A DNA stretch of 64,000 bases, from contig OZ242260.1 of assembly GCA_965207065.1 (NCBI GenBank), forward strand, positions 2,432,001 to 2,496,000. The letters are read 5' to 3'. Origin of the DNA: a bacterium (lineage in GTDB: Bacteria; UBA8248). The position numbers were made by a program, and so were the translations under genes. Of this stretch, positions 46,768-56,703 are shown one piece after another. Below the pieces are notes generated by a model. The model made no database searches. It was not told the origin of the DNA and saw only the letters and a list, made by a program, of their open reading frames with translations. Position 1 is the stretch's first letter. Each line of letters opens with the position of its first letter.

Positions 46768-47901
46768 ATGATTGAAAAACAGGCGGCGGTGGCGCCCGAT
46801 TTTGCGGCCCTGCGGGATGAGTTCCCCGTCACCCGGAACTGGACCTATCTGGACCTCGCCAACAAGGCGCCCCTGCCCCGGTGCGCCCAGGACGCGATTC
46901 CGGATTTCCTGCGGGAGATGAACGAACTCGGCGTCCGGGAGGCCTTCTCCAAGGTCCGCGTGGAGGAGGTCCGCGCCTCGCTGGCTTCGCTGCTGGGCGT
47001 CGCGCCGGGGGCGATAGCGTTCATCAAGAATACCTCAGAGGGCATGAACATCGCCGCGCAGGCGCTGGACCTCCAGGCGGGAGACAACGTCATCCAGGCG
47101 GAACTCGACCACCCGAACCAGGTGTACGCCTGGAAGCGCCTGGAGGAAAGGGGCGTCGAACTCAAGTGGGTGCGAAACGGGGAGGGCTGCCCCCCGGTGG
47201 AGGCGTTCATCGAGGCGATGGACGGGCGAACGCGCGTCGTGGCGGTCTCCTACGTGACTTTCGGGACGGGCTGCCGGGTGGACCTGCCCGCCCTGGGCGC
47301 GGCCTGCCGCGAGCGCGGTATCATTTTGATGACGGATGCGATTCAGGGAGTCGGAATCCTCTCGGCATCCTTGCCGGCCCTCGGGGCGGACATCGTGGTC
47401 TGCGGCGGGCACAAGGGATTGCTCGGCCTGCCGGGCACGGGCTTTCTCTATTGCCGCGAAGACCTGATTCCCGGGATGACGCCTCCCTTCTTCGCCCGCG
47501 CCAGCATGGTCCGCGAAGTGCTCGAGCGGATGGAGGTCGGGCTGGCCCCGGACGCCCACCGCTTCGAGATCGGGAATCAGAATTACCTGGGATTATGGGT
47601 GCTCGGCCGCTCGGTCGAGTTCCTGGCGGGGGTGGGGCTCGCGCATGTCGAGGAGCGCGTGCGGGGGTTGACGACTTACCTGATGGAGCTGCTGGAGAGG
47701 CGGGGCGAGAAGATTCTGACGCCTCGCCCCTGGGAGGAGCGCGCCGCCATCGTGAGCATCGAATCGCCCGACCCGCCCAGGGCGGCGGCGCAACTGCGCG
47801 AAAAGAGAATTATCGCCAGCGCGCGCAACAACGCCCTTCGCTTCGCGCCGCATTTCTACAATACCGAAGAAGAAATCGAGCGGGTGGTCGGTCTGCTTTA
47901 G
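46768..47901 (+). CDS. Class V PLP-dependent enzyme (aminotransferase/lyase/epimerase), lacking the desulfurase catalytic Cys
   Basis: YLDLAN, NTSEGMN, DAIQ, GGHKGLLG (PLP Lys), RFEIG, RFAPHFYN. Confidence 0.88.
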   Translation: MIEKQAAVAPDFAALRDEFPVTRNWTYLDLANKAPLPRCAQDAIPDFLREMNELGVREAFSKVRVEEVRASLASLLGVAPGAIAFIKNTSEGMNIAAQALDLQAGDNVIQAELDHPNQVYAWKRLEERGVELKWVRNGEGCPPVEAFIEAMDGRTRVVAVSYVTFGTGCRVDLPALGAACRERGIILMTDAIQGVGILSASLPALGADIVVCGGHKGLLGLPGTGFLYCREDLIPGMTPPFFARASMVREVLERMEVGLAPDAHRFEIGNQNYLGLWVLGRSVEFLAGVGLAHVEERVRGLTTYLMELLERRGEKILTPRPWEERAAIVSIESPDPPRAAAQLREKRIIASARNNALRFAPHFYNTEEEIERVVGLL

Positions 47902-47914
47902 GGAAGATAGCAAA

Positions 47915-48065
47915 CAATTCGATAAATTCAGATAAATTCACGGGGTTTTTGGATAAATTACCGTAAATTAACGAGGGGAAATGCGGGGATTTGCGGGGAA
48001 TTGCGGGGATGGATTGCGCGCAAATGCGGGCAAATGCGTGAGCGAATCCGGCGGAATTCGTGAAT
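47915..48065. repeat. Tract of short tandem repeats with about 10-bp period
   Basis: GATAAATTCA x2, ATAAATTA/GTAAATTA, WTGCGGGGAW x3, CAAATGCG x2. Confidence 0.75.
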
Positions 48066-48132
48066 CTTCCCGCACGATGCGCCTCTTGACCCTGTCCTTG
48101 ATGAAGACGTCCATCATCAGGTTCCCTTGCGC

Positions 48133-49812
48133 CTATGCCCGCCCGTAGCGGCGGCGGCGCCTGTCGATGTCCTCGAGTTTGCGCGAGAGCTTCTCGAGCG
48201 TCCGGTTGTCGCTCAGGTTCCCTTCGATGTGAATATGGTAGACGTGGGCCTCGCCTCCGCCCCCGCCCATCTCCTTTCGTATCGCGTCGCGGATGATGGG
48301 CCGCACGCCGCGCTGAAAGAAATCGATGGATTGCGGGTGGTTCACGTTCATGATGTGCTCGGGACCCGCCTCGCCCACGAGCCTGAGCGCCGAGCGCTTG
48401 ACGAATCGCCCCGCCGCGTCGCCTTCTTCTATGGGGAACGCCCCCAGGTAGGAAGAATAGAGGCCTTGGCCGAAATACCGCTTCACCCCCTCCTGGGGCG
48501 AGATGCCCGCCTTCCCGGCCGCTCTTTGGATAAGCTGGAACGTGAGGCCCGCTTTTTCCAGCAAAGGGGGGTCCACGCTCATCCGGCCTTCGTAGACCGC
48601 CTTGGGAAGCGGGAGGAGCCGCGCTTCATCCGCCACGCCGGTCTTGCGGAATTTCTCCAGCGCGATGTACAGCCCGGCCGCCTGCGCGAGATTCGCTATC
48701 CCCCGGGTGAAGGGGGTGGACCTGTCCCTGAAGCCCTTGAAGCCGAGGAAGGAGAGCACCTGCTTGATGGCGCCCCCCTTGTTGAACAAGACGTCTGTGA
48801 GCAAAAAGGCGCCTGCCGCAGGACCGAAGGCGGCGAGGCCCGTGGCGCCCGCGAGCGCGGGGAGGGCGCCCGCGGCGTTGATGGCCAGATTCGCGCCAGT
48901 TTTCAGGGTTTTGGGTCCCTTGAGGAAGTCCAGCGCCGAAAAAGCGACCCGCAAAGCTGCCGCCGCTTTCGTCGCCGCAATCCGCGCGGCCAGCGCGCCA
49001 CTCGCCTTTTCGCCCGCGGCGGTGGCGACCGCCGTGCCGCCGATCCGGTTCGCCGCTTCGAGTTCGGAGACGGACTGGAAAAGGCGCATGAGCCCCGCCT
49101 CGCCGCCGATTTTCGCCAGCGGCACCACGAGTTCCGGCCCCGCCTCGCCGATCAGGCCCAAGGTGGGTTTTTTCACCAGACCGCCCTTGGCGAATCCGAA
49201 CACATTGAGCAGGCCCTTGCCCAGATCGCCCAGCAGGTTCAGGCCCAGATCCTGGAGCGCGCCAACTGCCGGTTTGATGAATTGCGTACTCGCCATCTCG
49301 GCGGCGGCGTTGCGCACCATGTCGATGGCATGGTTCTTCAGGTCGCTGAACAGGTCCTTTGCGCTGTCGATTTTGCCGGTGAGGGCGTCCGAGAAAAACC
49401 GGGTGAGCGATTTTTCGCTCGCTGAGGCGAAATCGTTCACCGCCCTTCCGGCTATCTGAAAAGAGGCGGGCAGGGCGGCGGCTTTCGCCTTGACCTCGTC
49501 GAGTCCCCTGACGAGCGGGCCGGAGGCAAGCCGGGAGCCGGCTCGCTCCGCATTCCTCCACAGGGTATTCATCCCCTCGGCGGCTTCGGTGGACGAGACG
49601 CCGACTGCATGGAGGCGTTCTGAGGATCGAACGAAGGTGCGGCTCGATTGTTGGAGCGCGCTCTGTGACACGCGCGTTTGTATGCCTAGTTTTTCCGTGG
49701 CGATTCTCGCCTGCCCCGCCGATTTCGTGAAACGATCGAGGACTTTCAGGCTGTTGCCTGAGTTCAGGTCGATTTTCTTTATCACCGAAATCTTGTGGAC
49801 TTGCTCCGGCAT
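48133..49812 (-). CDS. Phage tail tape-measure-like protein
   Basis: Ala/Gly/Leu-rich helical sequence; FAKGGLVKKPTLGLIGEAGPELVVPL and a second LVGEAGPE motif typical of TMP C-termini; terminal YHIHIEG. Confidence 0.75.
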   Translation of the reverse strand: MPEQVHKISVIKKIDLNSGNSLKVLDRFTKSAGQARIATEKLGIQTRVSQSALQQSSRTFVRSSERLHAVGVSSTEAAEGMNTLWRNAERAGSRLASGPLVRGLDEVKAKAAALPASFQIAGRAVNDFASASEKSLTRFFSDALTGKIDSAKDLFSDLKNHAIDMVRNAAAEMASTQFIKPAVGALQDLGLNLLGDLGKGLLNVFGFAKGGLVKKPTLGLIGEAGPELVVPLAKIGGEAGLMRLFQSVSELEAANRIGGTAVATAAGEKASGALAARIAATKAAAALRVAFSALDFLKGPKTLKTGANLAINAAGALPALAGATGLAAFGPAAGAFLLTDVLFNKGGAIKQVLSFLGFKGFRDRSTPFTRGIANLAQAAGLYIALEKFRKTGVADEARLLPLPKAVYEGRMSVDPPLLEKAGLTFQLIQRAAGKAGISPQEGVKRYFGQGLYSSYLGAFPIEEGDAAGRFVKRSALRLVGEAGPEHIMNVNHPQSIDFFQRGVRPIIRDAIRKEMGGGGGEAHVYHIHIEGNLSDNRTLEKLSRKLEDIDRRRRRYGRA

Positions 49813-49865
49813 GGAATCCCCTATTCATGAACGAGATACTGGACGGGGCTGCGCTACCGAACGCG

Positions 49866-49988
49866 CTAATCCGCCCAGGGGTTGATGAAATGCCACAGGT
49901 GGTTCGTGATGAGGCGCGGTTCGACCGCCGCGACGACGCACAAGACGGCGGCGGCCGAGAAAAGCGCCGCGAGAAGGTAAGGAATCAT
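49866..49988 (-). CDS. 40-aa hydrophobic small protein (not in ORF track)
   Basis: MIPYLLAALFSAAAVLCVVAAVEPRLITNHLWHFINPWAD; ATGA overlap with the upstream gene. Confidence 0.5.
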   Translation of the reverse strand: MIPYLLAALFSAAAVLCVVAAVEPRLITNHLWHFINPWAD

Positions 49989-50368
49989 GGTTGACGCTCC
50001 TTGTTCATGCGCTCGTCGAGTCTGGCGAGCGCGGTTTCGACCTCACGCAGGCGGCGGAGTATTTGAGTAAAGGTTTTCGCGTCCTCGCGCGTTTTTTTCA
50101 TGGAAATCGTTTTCAGTTCGCGGAATTTGAGATCGGCAATTGTCTTCGCCTCTCGCAACCGGGTCTCCACTTCCTGGAAGCGGACGCGCGCGCCCGCGTT
50201 TTTCTCCAAAAGCCAGGGATGACCCCGCTCTGCCATGTGGGACGCCAGACGCTTTTCCACGTTCACGATCTGGTTGTATAGCGGCGTATAGGCGGCCACC
50301 CCGAGGCCGGCGATGCTCAGGATGGACAGGAAAATCTGGAGACCTTTTCCGTTTCCCTCAGACGCCAT
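49985..50368 (-). CDS. Hypothetical phage membrane protein (N-terminal TM helix plus coiled coil; lysis-accessory-like)
   Basis: Start MASEGNG overlaps the upstream stop (TGATG); LQIFLSILSIAGLGVAAY helix; VETALARLDERM tail. Confidence 0.6.
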   Translation of the reverse strand: MASEGNGKGLQIFLSILSIAGLGVAAYTPLYNQIVNVEKRLASHMAERGHPWLLEKNAGARVRFQEVETRLREAKTIADLKFRELKTISMKKTREDAKTFTQILRRLREVETALARLDERMNKERQP

Positions 50369-51063
50369 CAGCGCACCGCATCGAAAGAAGAGGCGGCTTC
50401 TTCGAGTTTGGAATCCAGAATCGCCATGCTCGCGGCGGCGTCCGCATCCTGGGTGTCGCGCACGCATTCGTCGTAAATTTTCAGGAGGGAGGCGAGCTTG
50501 CCGAGCAGGGTCGTCCTCCGGCCCGCCCACTCGTCCACCACGCTTTGACCCGACGCGTAGCGCGCCGGATAGGCGTCTTTTCTGTTTTTGATGAGCAGGT
50601 ACTCCGGTTTGGAGAGCTTCTTCGAATCTGCATCCTGCGCCCAGGCGTCAATGAGCCTGGTTTTTTCTTCGTACTCGGCCAGCTTGCCGCCCAGGGCGCT
50701 CACCGGTACGCCCACGATTCGCGCCTTGGCGCTGTTGAGCAACAGGTTGAGTTTCTCCTTCGCCTGATCCCGGTGGATTTGCGCCACGCCCTCGGGCGCG
50801 TGAGCGGCATGAGCGGCGAGAACGGCGTCTCGCTGCGCCCGGGTGCTCGGATCGGCCACGTTGATGACCCACGTGTCCCGGCCGGGGCCATGGACTTCAG
50901 GACGCGCGGATTCCGTCTCGCCGGGCCCGGGTTGCCAGTCGGCGTCAGGCGTCATGGTCGTCTTCAGCCGGTGCGCGCTGCCCAGGTAGAGATGTGCGAG
51001 ACCGGCGGTTTCGAGTTCATCGCGGAAATGCGGGCCGATGGCTTTGGTCACTTCGATTTCCAA
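50368..51063 (-). CDS. Hypothetical phage protein (position of a fibre assembly/accessory gene)
   Basis: AGGAG RBS with TTG start; follows the fibre-like gene; AVLAAH motif then a helical C-terminus. Confidence 0.55.
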   Translation of the reverse strand: MEIEVTKAIGPHFRDELETAGLAHLYLGSAHRLKTTMTPDADWQPGPGETESARPEVHGPGRDTWVINVADPSTRAQRDAVLAAHAAHAPEGVAQIHRDQAKEKLNLLLNSAKARIVGVPVSALGGKLAEYEEKTRLIDAWAQDADSKKLSKPEYLLIKNRKDAYPARYASGQSVVDEWAGRRTTLLGKLASLLKIYDECVRDTQDADAAASMAILDSKLEEAASSFDAVR

Positions 51064-51072
51064 GTCCGTCTC

Positions 51073-52014
51073 CTAAATCAAAACGACGCTTTGGAAGAGA
51101 TAATCCCCAATGTTCAGGATGCTCGAACCCGCCACGCGAAAGACGAACGTGGAGTGAACCTCGGCGAGCGCCCCTGCGTATATTCGCGTGTTCGCAATTG
51201 CGAAGTTGTCTTTCTCGCTGTTCGACAGGCGGATGATCTCGACTTCCGGGTAGGCCTGCTCCGTTCCGCCAAACAGTTCGAGGTCCATGTCCAGGCCCAC
51301 CAGACCCGCGATGCTCGTTGAATTCACCCAGCCCTGGCCGCCGGCTTCCTGGCGGATGACGTCATGGCCCGGCCACATCAGGATTTCGTGCGTGGCGACG
51401 GAGGTCCAGTTGGTCGACAGGGTGGTGGCGAGCGTTCCCCTGGACTGCGCGGCGTAATCCGCCTTGTTCCAGAAACTTCTGACATACACGTCGTTCGCGA
51501 GAACGAACTGGGATGAGGGGTCCGTTCTCGCGACCCCGACCAGGGTGCGGCTCATATCGTCCGTTTTGTGCGCCAGCCCCGTAGCGGCGTCGAACGCCCA
51601 GCTTCCTGTCCCGTCGAATTCGAGCTTGATCTCTCCACCGTCGTCGTAGACGAAGACCGCATAGGAGTGATCCGCAACGAGGTCCGCGTTCGTAATCGTG
51701 ATTCCCTGCCATGGCAAATCCTCGTAATAGACGTCTCCCGACGCTTCATCGATGAAGGGCACGTGACAACCCGCCACGGGATTGACGACGGCGGGATAGT
51801 AGGCGGAGCCCAGCGTCGGCTTGAACGCCAGGGTGGTGGCGTTCACGTAATCAAGCCTGCCCGCGCAATCGATGGGCTGCCTGTTGGCCCTGATTTTTCC
51901 GTCCGGGAACAGGGCGGCGAGGGCCAACCGGTCGATCACGCGGGCTTTCGTGGGGTGGTCGCCGCCGATGGCTTCTTCGGTGTAGCGGGCGGACAGATCG
52001 GCTCCGATGGGCAT
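51073..52014 (-). CDS. Putative tail fibre/receptor-binding protein
   Basis: AAAGGAG RBS; beta-rich sequence; position directly after the hub-like gene. Confidence 0.5.
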   Translation of the reverse strand: MPIGADLSARYTEEAIGGDHPTKARVIDRLALAALFPDGKIRANRQPIDCAGRLDYVNATTLAFKPTLGSAYYPAVVNPVAGCHVPFIDEASGDVYYEDLPWQGITITNADLVADHSYAVFVYDDGGEIKLEFDGTGSWAFDAATGLAHKTDDMSRTLVGVARTDPSSQFVLANDVYVRSFWNKADYAAQSRGTLATTLSTNWTSVATHEILMWPGHDVIRQEAGGQGWVNSTSIAGLVGLDMDLELFGGTEQAYPEVEIIRLSNSEKDNFAIANTRIYAGALAEVHSTFVFRVAGSSILNIGDYLFQSVVLI

Positions 52015-52025
52015 CGTGTTCTCCT

Positions 52026-53237
52026 TTATGCGTAGGTGGCGGCGTCGCGCTCGGCGCCCAGAAGCCGGCCGCCTTCGAGTGTTATGCTCCCGTCCAGAAG
52101 AGGGGAGGATGTCAGGAAAAAGCCGGTGTCCCGGATTTTGAGTTCCATGCCCTGTTCTCCCAGGTCGTAACTCACCTCGATAACCTCCCCGATCTGGTTC
52201 ACGAGGGGTTCGAGTTTATTCGAGCGCATCCAGGGCACGCTGTACGCCAGATAGTCATCCGGTTCGATTTCGAGTGCTCTCAAGGAGTCATCCTCGATGG
52301 TGAGCATGCGGGTGGGTTCGTGATAGCGCGCCACGATGCGCGATTGAACCGTGGCGGCCACGCTCCCGCGCCGGACCCATTCGAGCCTGAGCGGGCTCTG
52401 AGGAGGTCGCCTGACGCCATAGAGCCGTTGGGAGGACCTGTTCCGGGAGGCGCTTCCGTCGTCGTGTTTGATGTAGCGCCCGCCCGGATAATCTCTCGCA
52501 TAGAGCACCGGAACCTGATTGATGACGGTGTCGCGCGCCATCTCCGCCTCGATTCGCGACTGGCCGAAACGCGGCAGAACCTTTTGGGGCGACCTAGCAG
52601 AAGGTTTCTCTCCCGCGATGTGAATTTTCAGGCGACCGAACGAGTCGATTTCGTACCGTCCGAGGAAATCGCCCAACAGAGAGGTGAGAACGTCGGCAGG
52701 CGCATGGTCGTCCAGAATGATCCCGCCCGCCCGGTAGCCGAGGGCCTTCGCGCTGGTTGCCGCACGCGAGAGGGCCTGCATGTCGACCTCCTGTTCAGTG
52801 AATCCCCAGACGCTCGTCATCAGGTCATGAATCACCTCGGCGGGATTTTCGATGAGTGCGCCGCTGTCGTTTTTCCTGCCCTTGCATACGGCGGTCACGC
52901 GCCCCTTCGGTGGGTCTGCGAAAGCGGCCGTGGCGATGGCGCCTTTTGACTGGTAGTTCCTGGCGAGTTCCAGAGAATAGCTTTCCGGCTCGACGCGGCC
53001 ATCATCGTCAAAAAGCGAGACGGCTCCCGATATTTCATGGGCGGCCACGCAGTAGACGCCGCCGTCGGCGGAGTCGATTTTCGGGAGTGCGTAGACGCCC
53101 GCATTCCCGCGTGAAGGAATGGTCAAATCCCCATAGATGACGGGGAGACTCTGGTCCTCGAATTCAGGGTTGGCGTATCTTGAAGCGCGCCCGATATGGA
53201 ATGAGTCCGAGAGCCGGACCGTCGTCGGGTCAGCCAT
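52026..53237 (-). CDS. Putative phage baseplate hub/tail-tip protein
   Basis: LPVIYGD, IENPAEVIHDL, SQRLYG, LEIEPDD, C-terminal LDGSITLEG: patterns seen in siphophage hub/Tal proteins. Confidence 0.6.
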   Translation of the reverse strand: MADPTTVRLSDSFHIGRASRYANPEFEDQSLPVIYGDLTIPSRGNAGVYALPKIDSADGGVYCVAAHEISGAVSLFDDDGRVEPESYSLELARNYQSKGAIATAAFADPPKGRVTAVCKGRKNDSGALIENPAEVIHDLMTSVWGFTEQEVDMQALSRAATSAKALGYRAGGIILDDHAPADVLTSLLGDFLGRYEIDSFGRLKIHIAGEKPSARSPQKVLPRFGQSRIEAEMARDTVINQVPVLYARDYPGGRYIKHDDGSASRNRSSQRLYGVRRPPQSPLRLEWVRRGSVAATVQSRIVARYHEPTRMLTIEDDSLRALEIEPDDYLAYSVPWMRSNKLEPLVNQIGEVIEVSYDLGEQGMELKIRDTGFFLTSSPLLDGSITLEGGRLLGAERDAATYA

Positions 53238-53771
53238 CTAGTTGCCCTCGCATTCTATGGAGATCAGGTCGATGCGCTCGATGATCCGGCGGATGGTGAA
53301 GCTCCCGATCGAGAGAACATCGGATATGTTTTGTCCTGAAAACCCGACGCGCACGTCGACCCTTCCGCCAATGAGCGGCTCTGTCGCAAGAATGCGGCTC
53401 ATTCGCGGGTGGCCGTCCATGTCGGGAGCGTTGTTGACGGCTATCGTGAGGCCGGAGAGTTCCTTTTCTCTGAATATCTCGAGAATGGAGGGGCCTTGAA
53501 ACGCGCCGAGAGAGAAGCGCCCGCCATCTTCCACCCAATCGTGAACGCCCATGAGCACTTCCGCTCCCTCTCCCAGCAAAAGGGAACCGTCGAGAATCCG
53601 CGAGCCGTCGAGGAAATATATGCTTCCTCCTTGCCCGATCAGGAAGTCGGGCACCTGCTTTCCGCAGAACACGCGCTTTCCAGCGGCGGTGGAGAGGTGA
53701 TAGAGGACGAAGGCGGTTTTCCCCTCGTGTCCGGCGATGTCCGCAACCGCCTGATTCGTGGCGCGTCTCAT
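53238..53771 (-). CDS. Hypothetical phage tail protein
   Basis: Coupled to both neighbours; FLDGSRILDGSLLLG motif shared with the next gene. Confidence 0.55.
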   Translation of the reverse strand: MRRATNQAVADIAGHEGKTAFVLYHLSTAAGKRVFCGKQVPDFLIGQGGSIYFLDGSRILDGSLLLGEGAEVLMGVHDWVEDGGRFSLGAFQGPSILEIFREKELSGLTIAVNNAPDMDGHPRMSRILATEPLIGGRVDVRVGFSGQNISDVLSIGSFTIRRIIERIDLISIECEGN

Positions 53772-54844
53772 GCGAGTGTTTCCCTGAGCACGAGTTCGAA
53801 GGAGGAATCATCCGGCCCGATCTGCCGGGGCAAGAAGCCGCCCGCGAGGTGAGCGAGGACGATCGAAGCGGGGTCATCCACGTCCAGGTGAGCGAAGAAC
53901 GGCTTGGCCCGCCCGGCATCGACGTCCTTCACCGCCCGATACATGGCGAGAAACGCTCTTCGCTGCGCATCCGATATGCGCTCGTAGGGAAGGGTGATTG
54001 TGCGGCCACGATTCAGGAGTACGGGACGCTCCGCCATACTTTCCGTGCGGTTTGTTTCCTCGAAGGATTCTTCTCCCACCACGTTTCCGAACCAGAAATG
54101 GTCGGCGGGCTCGAAAAAGCCGCCCAGATAGATTTCCGAGACTTCCAGATAGGCATCCTGGTCGGCGGCGCCTTCGGCCAGGAGGCGCCAGTGGCGATAT
54201 GAACGCGGCGTAGTGGCGAAATAGTGGATGAGCGTGTCGCTGCGCCAGGTGAGCCTTTCATCGAGCGCGGGCGCGCGCCAGTCCGCGGACCTGTTCGCCT
54301 GAATCCGGAGACTGGCGTCGGGCGAGAAATAGTGGAGGTGGGCGATGAACACGTCGGGAGAGATCTGCGCGCCGAAATCAAGGACGAGCGACCATGGGTC
54401 TTCCGGCGGCGAGGCGCTTCTCATCTTCGTTGCGGGGTCGAGATCGTAAATTTTTCTTGGGGAATAAAAGCGGTTCGCCGTCGCCTGCCAATGATCTCCC
54501 AAGGCGAAAGCGGGTGAATCCGCCCCGTCCACGAAGCGGATCTTCACACCTGAGTCCAGGGCGATATCCGTCAGCGCGGTGGGGATGTTCGAGGCTTCCC
54601 AGCCATTCGTTGTGGTTGAGGTCTTGCGCCACTTGAAACGGGCGCTTCCCACATCGCCCGGAGCCTCGATTTCGGCGAAATAGACTTCCTGGTCCTCTCC
54701 GGTGTAGGCGCCCGAGAAGATCATCGATCCGCCCGCGCCCGCCACGCGGGGCACGCCCGCACCGACGAATCCCTTCTCTACGGAAGTGGCGGTGATGACT
54801 GTCTCGTCATCGATGAGATTTTGATACATGAAGCGATGCCCCAT
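53768..54844 (-). CDS. Putative distal-tail (Dit)-like phage protein
   Basis: AAGGAG RBS before MGHRFMYQNL; LVLDFG, YRHWRL, LEVSEIYLG, terminal FELVLRE. Confidence 0.5.
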   Translation of the reverse strand: MGHRFMYQNLIDDETVITATSVEKGFVGAGVPRVAGAGGSMIFSGAYTGEDQEVYFAEIEAPGDVGSARFKWRKTSTTTNGWEASNIPTALTDIALDSGVKIRFVDGADSPAFALGDHWQATANRFYSPRKIYDLDPATKMRSASPPEDPWSLVLDFGAQISPDVFIAHLHYFSPDASLRIQANRSADWRAPALDERLTWRSDTLIHYFATTPRSYRHWRLLAEGAADQDAYLEVSEIYLGGFFEPADHFWFGNVVGEESFEETNRTESMAERPVLLNRGRTITLPYERISDAQRRAFLAMYRAVKDVDAGRAKPFFAHLDVDDPASIVLAHLAGGFLPRQIGPDDSSFELVLRETLA

Positions 54845-55206
54845 TCCAATCTCCTTGGTGAGGGCTTCCGTTTCGGAAGAAGCGTTTCTCCCGTCGTGTT
54901 CTGGCATCACTCCGGTGCGAGGGGATGCCGAGGTCACCGAATATATGGGAACCGGAGTGGAGGGTTCGCCTCGCAAATGCGGGCAAATGCGCGGAAAAGA
55001 GGCATCGGATAAGTCGCAGGTATTCTTCCTGGAACGGAGTGAGCCATCAATTTCCGGAAGCGCTTTGGTTTTCCGGCACGCGCGCGATATGGAAACTTGA
55101 GAACCTGGGAAAATCTGCTATGATGAAGCCTCACCAGAATGATGGGGTTTCTGTCAGATCCCGCTGTTTTATGTGATATCCGCCTGATACTGCGAAAGGA
55201 ATCGCG

Positions 55207-56703
55207 ATGCGCAGGAGGGTGGCGCGTCTTTTCTCTCGATATGGCTCCATTCAAATATCCGGTAGTCGTTCTGCGAAATTTTGCGTAGTTGGCGTGTGCC
55301 TGGCGCTGGGCATCGGCGTGTTTTTGGGCGTCCGCTCCGTCACACCTCCTCCCCCGGTTTCGTCCGAAAAAACTCCTGCAACCCGTGAGGCGCCTCAGGG
55401 CGAACGAGCGCCCCAGAAGGTGAAAAAAGGTGCCGCGCCGAACCGCGAGTTCGCCCACGCGCCACGGAATATGATGCGCGAGAAACCCAAAGAAGATGCT
55501 TTGAAGAAAGCCTTTCGGGATCAGCCAATCATGAGTCCTCCGAATGAGGAAAGACTCACTACGGAAGCCGGCAAATTCTCAAAATCGGACACAGTCATCG
55601 GCGTGTTGATGGCGCATAAAGTGCCCCGTTCGGAAATTCAGAAAGTCCTGGATAGCGTCCGCAACAAACGTATTTTTTCGCGCATTCGGACGGGTCGGCG
55701 GTACGAAGTGAGAAAAAAAGATGGAGAATTTCATGAATTCGTTCTTCAAATCGACAACGAAAGTCGACTCATCATCTCGCGAACGCCAAACGGGACGATG
55801 ACTGCCTCGAAAGAGGCGATACCCTATTCCATAGATGTCGTTCGCATTCAATCCCGCATCGAGAGTTCCTTGTACAAGGCCATAGCCGATGGCGGCGGCG
55901 CTCCCGTACTGGTGAACGAGCTGAGCGATATTTTTGCGTACGTCATTGATTTTCATAAGGATATACGGAGTGGAGACGAGGTGGAAGTCCTGGTCGAGCG
56001 AAAGCATTTCAGGGATGAATTCACCGGTTACGGGAGGATTCTGGCGGCTGAGTTCATTGTTGGAGACAGGCGGCACACAGCAGTGTATTTCAAGCACGCA
56101 GGCGGGAGGTATTACAACTTCGAGGGTGAATCGCTGAGACGCGCCTTTTTGCGCTCTCCGCTCCGCTATACGCGAATCAGTTCGCGCTTCTCGAAGCGGC
56201 GCTTTCATCCCCTGCTCAAGCGCTACCGTCCCCACTTTGGCGTCGACTACGCCGCGCCCCGGGGTACGCCTGTACATGCGGTCGCCGACGGGGTCGTCGC
56301 CTGGGCGGGCCGCAAGCGGCAGGCCGGCAAGACGATAGAACTGCGCCATGGCGGGGGATATCGAACCGCGTATCTCCATCTGTATCGGTACGCGCGCGGG
56401 ATTCGCGCGGGCAGAAGGGTTGTTCAGGGCGATGTGATTGGCTACGTGGGCTCCACGGGGTTGTCCACCGGCCCTCATCTGGACTACAGGCTCATCCGCC
56501 GGGGGCGGTATTTGGACCCCTTGAAGGCGGAGCTTCCCAAAGGTATGCCGCTTCCCAGTTCTCTGCGCCCGGCATTCAATAAGATCTTGGATGAGCGGCG
56601 AACGATGTTTGACAATTTACCCCTGCTCAAGGAAGTTCAGGCTTCGCCGGCGGCCCACGAGCCGTTCTCCAGCGACGCGGAAAAGAGAACATCACGTCTT
56701 TGA
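55207..56703 (+). CDS. M23-family peptidoglycan DD-metalloendopeptidase (MepM-like)
   Basis: N-terminal TM helix; HFGVDYAAP (HxxxD), YLHL, GSTGLSTGPHLDY. Confidence 0.92.
   Translation: MRRRVARLFSRYGSIQISGSRSAKFCVVGVCLALGIGVFLGVRSVTPPPPVSSEKTPATREAPQGERAPQKVKKGAAPNREFAHAPRNMMREKPKEDALKKAFRDQPIMSPPNEERLTTEAGKFSKSDTVIGVLMAHKVPRSEIQKVLDSVRNKRIFSRIRTGRRYEVRKKDGEFHEFVLQIDNESRLIISRTPNGTMTASKEAIPYSIDVVRIQSRIESSLYKAIADGGGAPVLVNELSDIFAYVIDFHKDIRSGDEVEVLVERKHFRDEFTGYGRILAAEFIVGDRRHTAVYFKHAGGRYYNFEGESLRRAFLRSPLRYTRISSRFSKRRFHPLLKRYRPHFGVDYAAPRGTPVHAVADGVVAWAGRKRQAGKTIELRHGGGYRTAYLHLYRYARGIRAGRRVVQGDVIGYVGSTGLSTGPHLDYRLIRRGRYLDPLKAELPKGMPLPSSLRPAFNKILDERRTMFDNLPLLKEVQASPAAHEPFSSDAEKRTSRL

Follow-up and report, generated by a model that had tools for sequence, protein, structure and literature searches.

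The 64,000-nt stretch of DNA analyzed here (the window) contains a 20-mer, CGCAAATGCGGGCAAATGCG, that occurs exactly at 48019-48038 and at 54972-54991, each time on the + strand, just as the earlier note had reported. No third copy is found in the window at up to 3 mismatches, and 2 matches were obtained in none of the shuffled sequences (0/100). Eight tightly packed minus-strand ORFs lie between the two 20-mers (Table 1). A Pfam scan of the 51 remaining ORFs of the window returned housekeeping families or no match and nothing phage-like, so that the repeats do bracket every phage-like ORF of the window. Across the genome the 20-mer belongs to a motif family and represents its consensus, and the identity of the two copies therefore needs no special link between them.

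Table 1. Features of the tail operon, its flanking motif copies, and the gene units that make up the set.
Feature	Position	Strand	Description
A/T-phased module	47917..47972	-	GATAAATTC-type tracts every 10 bp; part of a dispersed intergenic repeat
Left motif array	47979..48038	-	Six CGCAWWT-like units spaced ~10 bp apart; the left 20-mer, 48019-48038, is made up of the last two
TMP559	48133..49812	-	Tape-measure-like, last gene of unit (PHROGs and synteny)
p40	49866..49988	-	40-aa membrane peptide; start overlaps p121 stop (ATGA)
p121	49985..50368	-	127 aa; start at MASEGNGKG; N-terminal membrane helix, then charged helical tail
p231	50368..51063	-	Accessory protein without membrane helix; maximum hydropathy 1.15
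p313	51073..52014	-	Probable receptor-binding or fibre protein, a lead from Atlas clusters
p403	52026..53237	-	Baseplate hub / tail-tip protein (AlphaFold and Foldseek)
p177	53238..53771	-	Small tail protein, no known family; ORF overlaps p358 by 4 nt
p358	53768..54844	-	First tail gene; AAGGAG ribosome-binding site and ATG; discoidin/CBM32-like domain; "distal tail" position
-10 hexamer TATATT	54940..54945	-	26 nt downstream of 20-mer; no -35 consensus
Right 20-mer	54972..54991	-	Two tandem CGCATTT half-sites 10 bp apart; putative promoter-upstream element, ~-58 to -39
Unit A	genome 437.5-440.6 kb		Terminase ATPase, terminase nuclease, portal
Unit B	genome 422.1-428.0 kb		Protease-capsid fusion, neck proteins, tail tube, chaperone-sized gene
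Unit C	window cluster		Tail tip, hub, probable receptor binder, two small membrane proteins, tape measure

The first gene of the operon, p358, matches a "tail protein" in BFVD (E 5.5e-8), and its nearest Atlas cluster is viral (score 0.97). Its structure model, of middling confidence (pLDDT 61.9), aligns with CBM32 over 116 residues (Z 11.2, rmsd 2.7 A); the structure matches listed are CBM32/discoidin domains and viral "tail proteins," with no Dit entry among them. The earlier label "Dit-like" thus fails for the fold, which is CBM32/discoidin-like, and holds for the position, since the gene keeps its place after the tape measure in outgroups. The p403 model has a mean pLDDT of 57.7, again of middling confidence, with residues 30-200 at 75-89. 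Its best Foldseek match is the T5 tail tip 7zqp_b (E 1e-6, TM-score 0.38 normalised by query), and further matches are the JBD30, Chi, and DT57C hubs and lambda 8iyk_F. This fold match agrees with the label "hub" given before, and p403 is predicted to be the hub/Tal protein with a gp27-like fold that belongs to a siphophage tail-tip module. It has 378 relatives at E<=0.001. In those of 560-580 aa the hub domain begins at about residue 170, and their N-terminal part is probably a p177-sized domain fused before the hub, in many distant relatives.

For p313 no Pfam or PHROG match was found; the Atlas clusters closest to it are viral (0.96 and 0.95), and one at 0.93 contains PF21916 mtd_2nd in 65% of its members. 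The accessory protein p231 likewise has no family match in Pfam or PHROG and is kept in 10/10 relatives. The hydrophobic window of p121 spans residues 8-30, and by shape only the protein is spanin- or holin-like. The p40 peptide sequence is kept in two relatives (G020 and G004). TMP559 has no Pfam match and no phage tblastn match, but it matches phrog_1535, "tail length tape measure protein," at E 9.4e-8, plus three weaker tape-measure families, and a homologue of its C-terminal part lies immediately before p358 in the sister genus (G024; 35% identity, E 3.5e-12). These PHROG matches and the sister-genus synteny lend weak confirmation to the earlier label "tape measure" and to the presence of this component of a siphophage tail-tip module.

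Gene order was compared with that of a sister genus and a class-level outgroup. In G024 (sister genus) and G027 the tape-measure gene directly precedes the p358 homologue, and the earlier proposal that the order in the window is a circular permutation of the canonical one is supported. The single ancestral array is still contiguous in sister genera, and the permuted order became fixed in the genus long ago and does not reflect a present-day circle.

The right 20-mer is the putative promoter element of the seven- to eight-gene tail operon (unit C). Its 17-base core is exact in 8/10 relatives and has 1 mismatch in the other 2, with diverged flanks; the -10 is conserved as CCATATATTC, and the promoter is kept in 10/10 relatives. 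A sigma-70 scan at the tail promoter did not find a -35/-10 pair. Few RNA contigs cover the operon, and these could stem from carried-over DNA. Genome-wide, the 20-mer has 6 exact copies and 44 at up to 2 mismatches, with 0 for the reversed control. The motif consists of two tandem CGCATTT half-sites separated by 10 bp (one helical turn) at about -58 to -39, and among the 72 motif dimers of the genome the spacing peaks at 10 bp. A fixed architecture follows the dimer: nAnnnT is found at offset +29 in 52/72 and in at most 6 at each of 39 other offsets, the distance from motif to -10 hexamer is 26 nt, and the -35 is absent.

The motif occurs in 24-78 copies per genome in most of the genus and in 0/18 genomes outside it. 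One genus member, G016, has just 3 copies even at <=3 mismatches, and these precede the capsid, terminase, and p358 genes. In the genome studied here (G000) most copies lie away from virion genes, and 20 downstream ORFs that were tested comprise 4 integrases, 8 with ordinary enzyme/helicase domains, and 8 with no family. Because most G000 copies are not at virion genes, the motif could have a broader role in promoters, at least within the subclade that saw it expand. The ribosomal-protein operons of the window have no motif copy. In the sister genus, a different motif is common to the capsid and tail promoters, as expected for a dedicated, co-evolving factor. Because the element changes between sister genera, it offers a means of searching both for the regulator and for more members of the set.

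The left copy has another character. At the fixed offset from its exact dimer there is no -10, and the element that contains this dimer, located after the tape-measure gene, is present in 6/10 relatives and absent in 4/10. The core of the adjoining A/T-phased module, CCCGTGAATTTATC, has 51 copies in the genome, 50 of them intergenic and 16 with at least 2 motif units just upstream. Contig depth reaches 311 at this module versus ~15 alongside, and contigs break there. The left copy is a member of this dispersed intergenic repeat family and no partner of the right copy, and the repeat family amplified the motif in part of the genus.

Units A and B lie 2 Mb from the tail operon, each behind the same motif at the same distance from the -10. 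Their identifications are GpA_ATPase and phrog_675, the portal phrog_10963, Phage_capsid_4 and phrog_4523, an HK97-gp10-like protein, and Phage_tube_2. The combination of motif, 26 nt, and TAnnTT is kept at the capsid promoter in 8/8 genomes and at the terminase promoter in 7/7. Promoter conservation at the tail, capsid, and terminase units and the fixed -10 register support what the earlier note had offered as its fallback, a shared regulator site. In some relatives (G001, G007, G008, and G022) the tape-measure gene has its own motif promoter, the fourth of the set. Together the units supply the tailed-phage particle genes expected of a gene transfer agent (GTA), namely terminase, portal, capsid, neck, tube, tape measure, and tail tip, and no integration, replication, or lysogeny genes accompany them: the flanks of the three units are host genes by Pfam, with no integrase, replication, or repressor gene. 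An HTH_3 gene adjoins the portal in G000 and is not at that place in the relatives fetched. Neither a small terminase nor an endolysin was identified at the three loci, where most small ORFs have no family.

The hub, capsid, and portal genes are single-copy in the same 20/22 genus genomes. The tail unit has the same gene order and chromosomal place in 10/10 relatives fetched, and the capsid and terminase units are syntenic in 7/7. Over 16 genes dN/dS is 0.08-0.55 (p358, 0.20-0.31; p177, 0.12-0.23; p313, 0.16-0.43; p121, 0.12-0.17), and dS is within the range of flanking host genes. The synteny, dN/dS, and host-like dS indicate vertical inheritance under purifying selection across the clade, as in a GTA. 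In a sample of the phylum, the capsid is found in 37/51 genomes and the hub in 36/51, with identity dropping with taxonomic distance. Loss and decay also occur. All three units are missing from G009 and G010, which have 0 and 1 motif copies, and G010 retains a 26-aa portal remnant, a deletion scar. The portal is fragmented in G016 and the hub in G023 and G027, and four genomes (G025, G026, G056, and G057) have a capsid without a hub or a hub without a capsid.

An integrated, excisable tail-tip cassette was considered and rejected, as it fails the refutation tests that the earlier note had itself proposed. The earlier note read the two 20-mers as attL/attR-like sites from which a satellite-like or host-range module could excise as a ~7 kb circle. 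In favour of this, the two copies are identical, point the same way, and enclose the cluster, whose genes run in a circularly permuted order; moreover, the interval from the M23 gene to the far neighbour is an empty site in G009 and G010. Repeat-mediated excision would leave one motif dimer behind, whereas both empty sites hold none, and the two genomes also lack units A and B, one of them with the deletion scar. The right copy is part of a conserved promoter, and the gene order is the same in 10/10 relatives; 4 of these, with the cluster in place, lack the left element. With its 44 near-copies the 20-mer is a common genome-wide repeat and is not specific to the ends of the element. No recombinase family was matched among the 9 ORFs of the cluster search and the 51 other ORFs of the window, and the cluster has diverged as much as host genes. 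No joint of 48038 to 54972 is present in contigs of three DNA-type runs, a weak observation since contigs cannot show rare forms. Excision is thus not supported, because of the motif-free empty sites, the lack of a recombinase nearby, the lack of a junction contig, and the dispersed nature of the left copy, and we regard it as extremely improbable. Phage attL/attR and arm-type integrase sites share with this locus short direct repeats flanking a phage-like block; they differ in that here no recombinase is nearby, the repeat is not confined to the ends and is absent at empty sites, and one copy is part of a promoter. This calls for caution: when an exact direct repeat encloses phage-like genes, its two copies may be promoter-type sites and not attachment sites.

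The units might instead be inert remnants of one old prophage, with the motif a common host module, similar to UP elements, contacted by RNA polymerase alpha. In E. coli UP elements, alpha C-terminal domains contact DNA at the positions that the half-sites occupy here, copies of the motif stand ahead of housekeeping genes in G000 as well, and some lineages have broken genes. We nevertheless find this unlikely: dN/dS is 0.08-0.55 with frames intact across 20 genomes, the motif is confined to the three virion units in G016, it was counted in none of the 18 genomes outside the genus and is near-absent in the two genus members that lack the virion genes, none of the ribosomal-protein operons in the window has it, and the sister genus uses another shared motif at its capsid and tail promoters. 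It is more improbable still that the tail unit acts as a tailocin or supplies tails to tail-less capsid islands. At 3.88 Mb the genome does contain a head-only island, which encodes integrase, large terminase, HNH, capsid, protease, portal, and neck terminator and has no tail genes, but the island capsid is present in just 3/22 genus genomes versus 20/22 for the tail unit. The tail unit, moreover, has the same promoter as the capsid, portal, and terminase units of its own set and is lost along with them. Neither a sheath gene nor any other gene of tailocin type was seen.

To judge by their sequences, the three units jointly resemble a virus that its bacterial host has domesticated to make gene-transfer particles. 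The 20-mer is probably a lineage-specific promoter-upstream element that heads every unit of an old, vertically inherited, scattered siphovirus-derived set, a candidate multi-locus GTA. A putative activator would bind the tandem half-sites and recruit RNA polymerase; all units would then fire together, yielding tailed, DNA-packaging particles. Such joint firing and packaging would make the set a candidate multi-locus GTA. It is conceivable, although on balance doubtful, that this small, uncultured, largely sponge-associated phylum (its records are labelled Nitrospinae or Tectomicrobia) has a working GTA of independent origin, cut in the genus into three or four units that are tied only by a dedicated tandem-repeat activator site, the site having later been copied onto dispersed repeats and before four integrase genes. 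If so, genomic islands may trigger their own excision when particles form and ride in them. To our knowledge, experiments have established gene transfer agents in very few lineages. A candidate spread across a phylum of sponge-associated bacteria would offer a concrete vehicle of gene exchange within these dense symbiont communities, and the locus illustrates how a scattered virus-derived gene set may stay one regulon by means of a short cis element.

In E. coli UP elements, alpha C-terminal domains bind upstream of the -35, and OmpR/PhoB-type response regulators such as CtrA bind direct-repeat sites. Compared by sequence alone, the motif resembles UP elements and CtrA boxes in its position upstream of the -35, in its two subsites one helical turn apart, and in the missing -35; unlike them, it has a conserved, G+C-rich, lineage-specific CGCA core. 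Among gene transfer agents, the RcGTA genes also have a multi-locus layout. Both sets consist of phage-derived head-tail genes at more than one chromosomal locus, descend vertically across a large clade, and lack integration and replication genes. Two reports (PMC6363796, PMC9638019) describe RcGTA of Rhodobacter capsulatus with its activator GafA. RcGTA has a dedicated activator at its promoters, and the present set, known from its genes, has a shared promoter element in cis. This set differs in belonging to another phylum with no detectable sequence link (no match to a Pfam GTA family), in having its main head-to-tail array cut into three or four units, in a terminase made of two genes, and in a cis element built as a tandem direct repeat from -58 to -39. 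CcGTA of Caulobacter crescentus is likewise a prophage-like, non-self-propagating cluster, under tight host control according to the published accounts, which describe transcriptional activation plus anti-termination along the cluster (PMC9632790, PMC11150451); here, in contrast, every short unit carries the promoter element for itself. BaGTA of Bartonella, as portrayed in a preprint (bioRxiv 10.1101/2024.11.20.624540), combines two phages in a chimera linked by antitermination and resembles the present set in placing several loci in one expression programme, which the shared promoter element suggests here, but in our case one ancestral array, contiguous in sister genera, was split.

The exact 20-mer CGCAAATGCGGGCAAATGCG lies at 48019-48038 and 54972-54991, both on the + strand; the window holds no other copy at up to 3 mismatches, and two matches were reached in 0 of 100 shuffles. 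The ORFs between the copies all run on the minus strand and are overlapping or closely packed. The 51 other window ORFs scanned encode ribosomal proteins, SecY, RpoA, metabolic enzymes or transporters, or gave no match, with no phage-like gene among them, and the observation in an earlier note that the repeats bracket the phage-like ORFs of the window stands as written.

The host genome (G000) is a single 4.48-Mb contig, of which the window is positions 2432001-2496000. It contains 6 exact copies of the 20-mer and 44 with at most 2 mismatches, against 0 for the reversed control, and is thus a genome-wide motif. The 20-mer consists of two 10-bp units: spacing between WWWTGCG occurrences peaks sharply at 10 (37 pairs on one strand, 35 on the other), giving 72 motif dimers in 62 clusters, with the opposite-strand consensus CGCATTTSCCCGCATTTGCCGT. 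Since the window 20-mer equals the family consensus, the identity of its two copies requires no special link between them. A -10-like hexamer follows 29 nt past a 17-base core, that is, 26 nt past the 20-mer. At this offset nAnnnT occurs for 52 of the 72 dimers versus at most 6 at each of 39 other offsets, and TAnnnT for 28 versus at most 2 elsewhere; no conserved -35 was found across the dimers. Motif copies number 24-78 per genome in 18 of the 22 genomes of the genus and 0 to 4 in the remaining four, and there were none in 18 genomes searched outside it.

Many motif sites are members of multi-copy classes with conserved downstream sequence. Among 20 ORFs behind other G000 sites, picked for a ribosome-binding site and scanned with Pfam, four were tyrosine recombinases (three with an Arm-DNA-binding domain), eight had ordinary enzyme or helicase domains, eight had no family and none was a virion gene. 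The dimers lie 257-410 nt upstream of the four recombinase genes, none of which has a tRNA within 1 kb. The motif sites are not tRNA-linked island ends, because tRNA or tmRNA genes lay within 1 kb of 0 of 70 sites.

On the minus strand the right copy (54991-54972) is followed by 26 nt, TATATT (54945-54940), about 90 nt, AAGGAG and the ATG of p358, the first tail gene, at 54844. This block is kept in all 10 same-genus genomes whose locus was fetched, the 17-base core being exact in 8 and differing at one base in 2; all retain the -10 context CCATATATTC, and sequence farther upstream has diverged. We read the right copy as the promoter element of the tail operon. A sigma-70 consensus scan found no -35/-10 pair at the p358 promoter, which would fit an activator-dependent promoter. 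The sole find was a near-consensus promoter at 55097-55124 (+; TTGAGA, 16 nt, TATGAT, with TG) preceding the divergent M23/Csd3 peptidase gene, which is missing from its place in three relatives (G001, G007 and G020). A metatranscriptome (X20) yielded seven small contigs, of which four map to the operon (49882-50044, 53415-53576, 54263-54620 and 54879-55025); contig 54879-55025 extends upstream of the predicted start and so shows neither start nor expression.

The left copy ends a six-unit CGCAWWT-like array (47979-48038), adjoined by an A/T-phased module (47917-47972) whose core has 51 genome copies, 50 of them intergenic, with no orientation preference and with at least 2 motif units just upstream in 16 of the 51. 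No -10 stands at the fixed offset from the exact left dimer. Summed metagenome-contig depth is 311 over 47862-48142 versus about 15 alongside, and contigs end there. The composite behind the tape-measure gene is present in 6 of 10 relatives and absent from 4 that retain the cluster. The left copy belongs to a dispersed repeat. The composite family, at 47917-48038 and some 50 other intergenic places, comprises A/T-phased modules (51), motif arrays and multi-copy classes whose -10 is fixed and whose transcribed sequence is conserved, such as CAGAAT then TCCCCTGCGCCCGGATTCCGCGG or TATCGT then a GCGGGAAAACGATTTTCCCGC hairpin. Rfam gave two sub-threshold chance matches only over 47500-55400, so the modules correspond to no known RNA family. 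A 49-codon ORF (47968-48117, minus) begins directly after the tape-measure stop and reads across the motif array; G008 and G022 keep the first 16 codons of this ORF, which may have arisen by chance.

In G016, a genome of the genus, only three motif copies exist, even at up to 3 mismatches: one upstream of p358 and two orthologous to G000 sites 428167 and 440648. Behind 440648 stands a terminase-portal unit and behind 428167 a capsid-to-tail-tube unit, which together with the window cluster make up a complete particle set of siphovirus type, about 15.7 kb in all. The capsid promoter (motif, 26 nt, TAGATT or TAAATT; TAGTTT in G020) occurs in 8 of 8 genomes and the terminase promoter (motif, 26 nt, TATATT) in 7 of 7, its first half-site degenerate in G020. 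A fourth, at the tape-measure gene (motif, 26 nt, TACACT), is found in G001, G007, G008 and G022, where one to three lipoprotein genes precede it; it is degenerate in G020 and lost in G000 and G004. These tandem paralogous genes (one to three, 182-217 aa) separate the small membrane-protein genes from the tape-measure gene in the same four genomes and in G020 and are absent in G000; with p121 and p40, which have one membrane helix each, they may act as a set for lysis or a spanin-like one. The large terminase consists of two translationally coupled genes, ATPase and nuclease (L049:10666-12362, genome ~438866-440562, minus), with an ATGA or GTGA stop-start overlap and GGAGG 8 nt upstream; conserved in 7 of 7 genus genomes, the split is fixed and not a frameshift error. 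An HTH_3 gene beside the portal was rejected as regulator, being absent from that place in the relatives fetched. A DUF520 gene upstream of the terminase is a possible further part of the unit: it was partly deleted with the unit in G010, yet is non-adjacent in G020.

Features of the three units and of related loci (window coordinates for p358 to the M23/Csd3 gene; motif sites and recombinase genes in genome coordinates; L, fetched loci; P, relatives' proteins)
Feature	Location	Strand	Size	Match or remark
p358	53768-54844	-		
p177	53238-53771	-		
p403	52026-53237	-		
p313	51073-52014	-		
p231	50368-51063	-		
p121	49985-50368	-		
p40	49866-49988	-		
TMP559	48133-49812	-		53-nt gap before gene
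Flanking Aminotran_5 gene	46768-47901			Pfam
Flanking M23/Csd3 peptidase gene	55207-56703			Pfam
Terminase ATPase	downstream of 440648		352 aa	PF05876; phrog_675, E 7e-50
Terminase nuclease part	downstream of 440648			
Portal	downstream of 440648		449 aa	phrog_10963, E 3e-46
Protease-capsid fusion	downstream of 428167		692 aa	PF25209, E 7e-47
Three small ORFs	downstream of 428167			
Neck protein	downstream of 428167			HK97-gp10-like
Tail tube protein	downstream of 428167		393 aa	PF18906; phrog_290
ORF	downstream of 428167		144 aa	
Lipoprotein gene regions in relatives	L021:11295-13082, L022:11052-12821, L023:11266-11862, L026:11164-11817			
G024 CGAATTTCCTGCAC promoters	L064:3640-3720, L065:380-440			distance to -10 similar to genus motif
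Motif-headed tyrosine recombinase genes	1556448-1557626, 1925766-1926941, 2370065-2371246, 1527991-1528830			
Fused hub-family proteins	P0028, P0098, P0148, P0172, P0160, P0119, P0117			

Pfam gave no match for any of the 7 tail ORFs scanned, and PHROGs matched only the tape measure (TMP559, weakly, E 9.4e-8) and one unknown family. The model of the hub p403 has a mean pLDDT of 57.7, with residues 30-200 at 75-89, and its best structural matches are the T5 tail tip (7zqp_b, E 1e-6), the JBD30, Chi and DT57C hubs and lambda tail-tip entries; the hub-family profile found only a chance-level match among PDB sequences (E 0.28). The family counts 378 relatives at E<=0.001. Some, in other genomes, are fusions with a LamG, NHL beta-propeller, sortilin/BNR or polysaccharide-deacetylase domain and probably serve as tips that bind receptors or degrade glycans. 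The p358 model (pLDDT 61.9) has matches among viral "tail proteins" of BFVD (E 5.5e-8) and CBM32/discoidin domains (Z 11.2, rmsd 2.7 A, 116 residues aligned). Neither Foldseek (pdb) nor VIA-wide listed a Dit entry for it, so the Dit-like label given earlier to 53768-54844 has its basis in gene position only. For p313 the nearest Atlas clusters are viral, one with an Mtd second domain in 65% of members, a link we treat as a lead only. Against 50,697 phage records, tblastn found no match for p403 or TMP559; the capsid matched 109 phage records.

The same 20 of the 22 genus genomes carry one copy each of the hub, capsid and portal genes, with identities of 68-88%, 78-91% and 82-95%, respectively. 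Pairwise dN/dS for 16 virion genes against six genomes was 0.08-0.55, and their dS falls in the same range as that of flanking host genes. Of 51 genomes in a phylum sample, 37 have the capsid and 36 match the hub profile, each of the two being spread over 12 of 15 genera, with identity declining from genus to family to class; homologue records carry the labels Nitrospinae or Tectomicrobia. Neither G009 nor G010 has any of the three units, and their motif copies number 0 and 1, respectively (at most 2 mismatches). A 26-aa portal remnant next to the host neighbour in G010 is a deletion scar, and some lineages show signs of decay.

The earlier note had proposed that recombination between the 20-mers could excise the cluster as a tail cassette, restoring a canonical gene order. 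The cluster keeps its host neighbours in 10 of 10 genus genomes fetched, as the terminase-portal and capsid-to-tube units do in 7 of 7, which speaks for a conserved place rather than an excisable cassette. The empty sites that separate the M23 gene from the far neighbour (about 250 bp in G010, about 760 bp in G009) contain no motif dimer or cluster remnant, contrary to an excision that leaves a repeat. The 48038|54972 joint was absent from the Logan contigs of three DNA-type runs (X1, X3 and X8), a weak test for junctions as it covers contigs only. Two other contig joints, 47552 to 48847 and 47971 to 55700 on opposite strands, have their short sides at the repeat and were read as repeat artefacts. 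No recombinase gene was found in the window.

The circular permutation itself is real. The array of the class-level outgroup G027 runs from terminase through portal, capsid, neck, tube and chaperone to a tape measure (752 aa; phrog_991, E 2e-61), which is followed by the p358 homologue, a p177-like gene and the hub, and in the sister genus G024 a true homologue of the TMP559 C-terminus directly precedes p358. Capsid and hub share one contig, 10-11 kb apart, in a further three genera of the family, and in G023 the host neighbour gene of the capsid-to-tube unit abuts p177/p403 fragments. These orders indicate that the ancestor had one contiguous array. In the genus the tail part moved about 2 Mb away, with the tape-measure gene ending behind it, and a circular intermediate is one possible route. 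The event predates diversification of the genus, and today's two 20-mers were uninvolved. In G024 the promoters of the capsid gene and of p358 have another upstream element in common, CGAATTTCCTGCAC, followed by TAGATT or TACATT, a variant that suggests a cis element co-evolving with its factor.

Outside the window, at genome 3877296-3887496 (L029:11296-18852, L030:310-1497), lies a head-only island with genes for an integrase, a large terminase (476 aa), HNH, an HK97-type capsid, an S78 protease, adaptors, a portal and a neck terminator, and with no tail genes. Just 3 of the 22 genus genomes have its capsid, so the island is mobile; it resembles a capsid-forming satellite, comparable to cf-PICIs, or a defective prophage.

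A conserved, fixed-register promoter element is common to the three or four units that make up a domesticated set of phage particle genes. An activator would bind the tandem half-sites, and the units together would make DNA-packaging particles, making the multi-unit set a candidate gene transfer agent. Among the matches listed by literature searches of non-subscription journals, no paper describes a gene transfer agent or such a promoter element for these bacteria, and for sponge symbionts the bacterial-symbiont or gene transfer agent papers listed concern Alphaproteobacteria. Systems comparable to the candidate are RcGTA with GafA, CcGTA and BaGTA.
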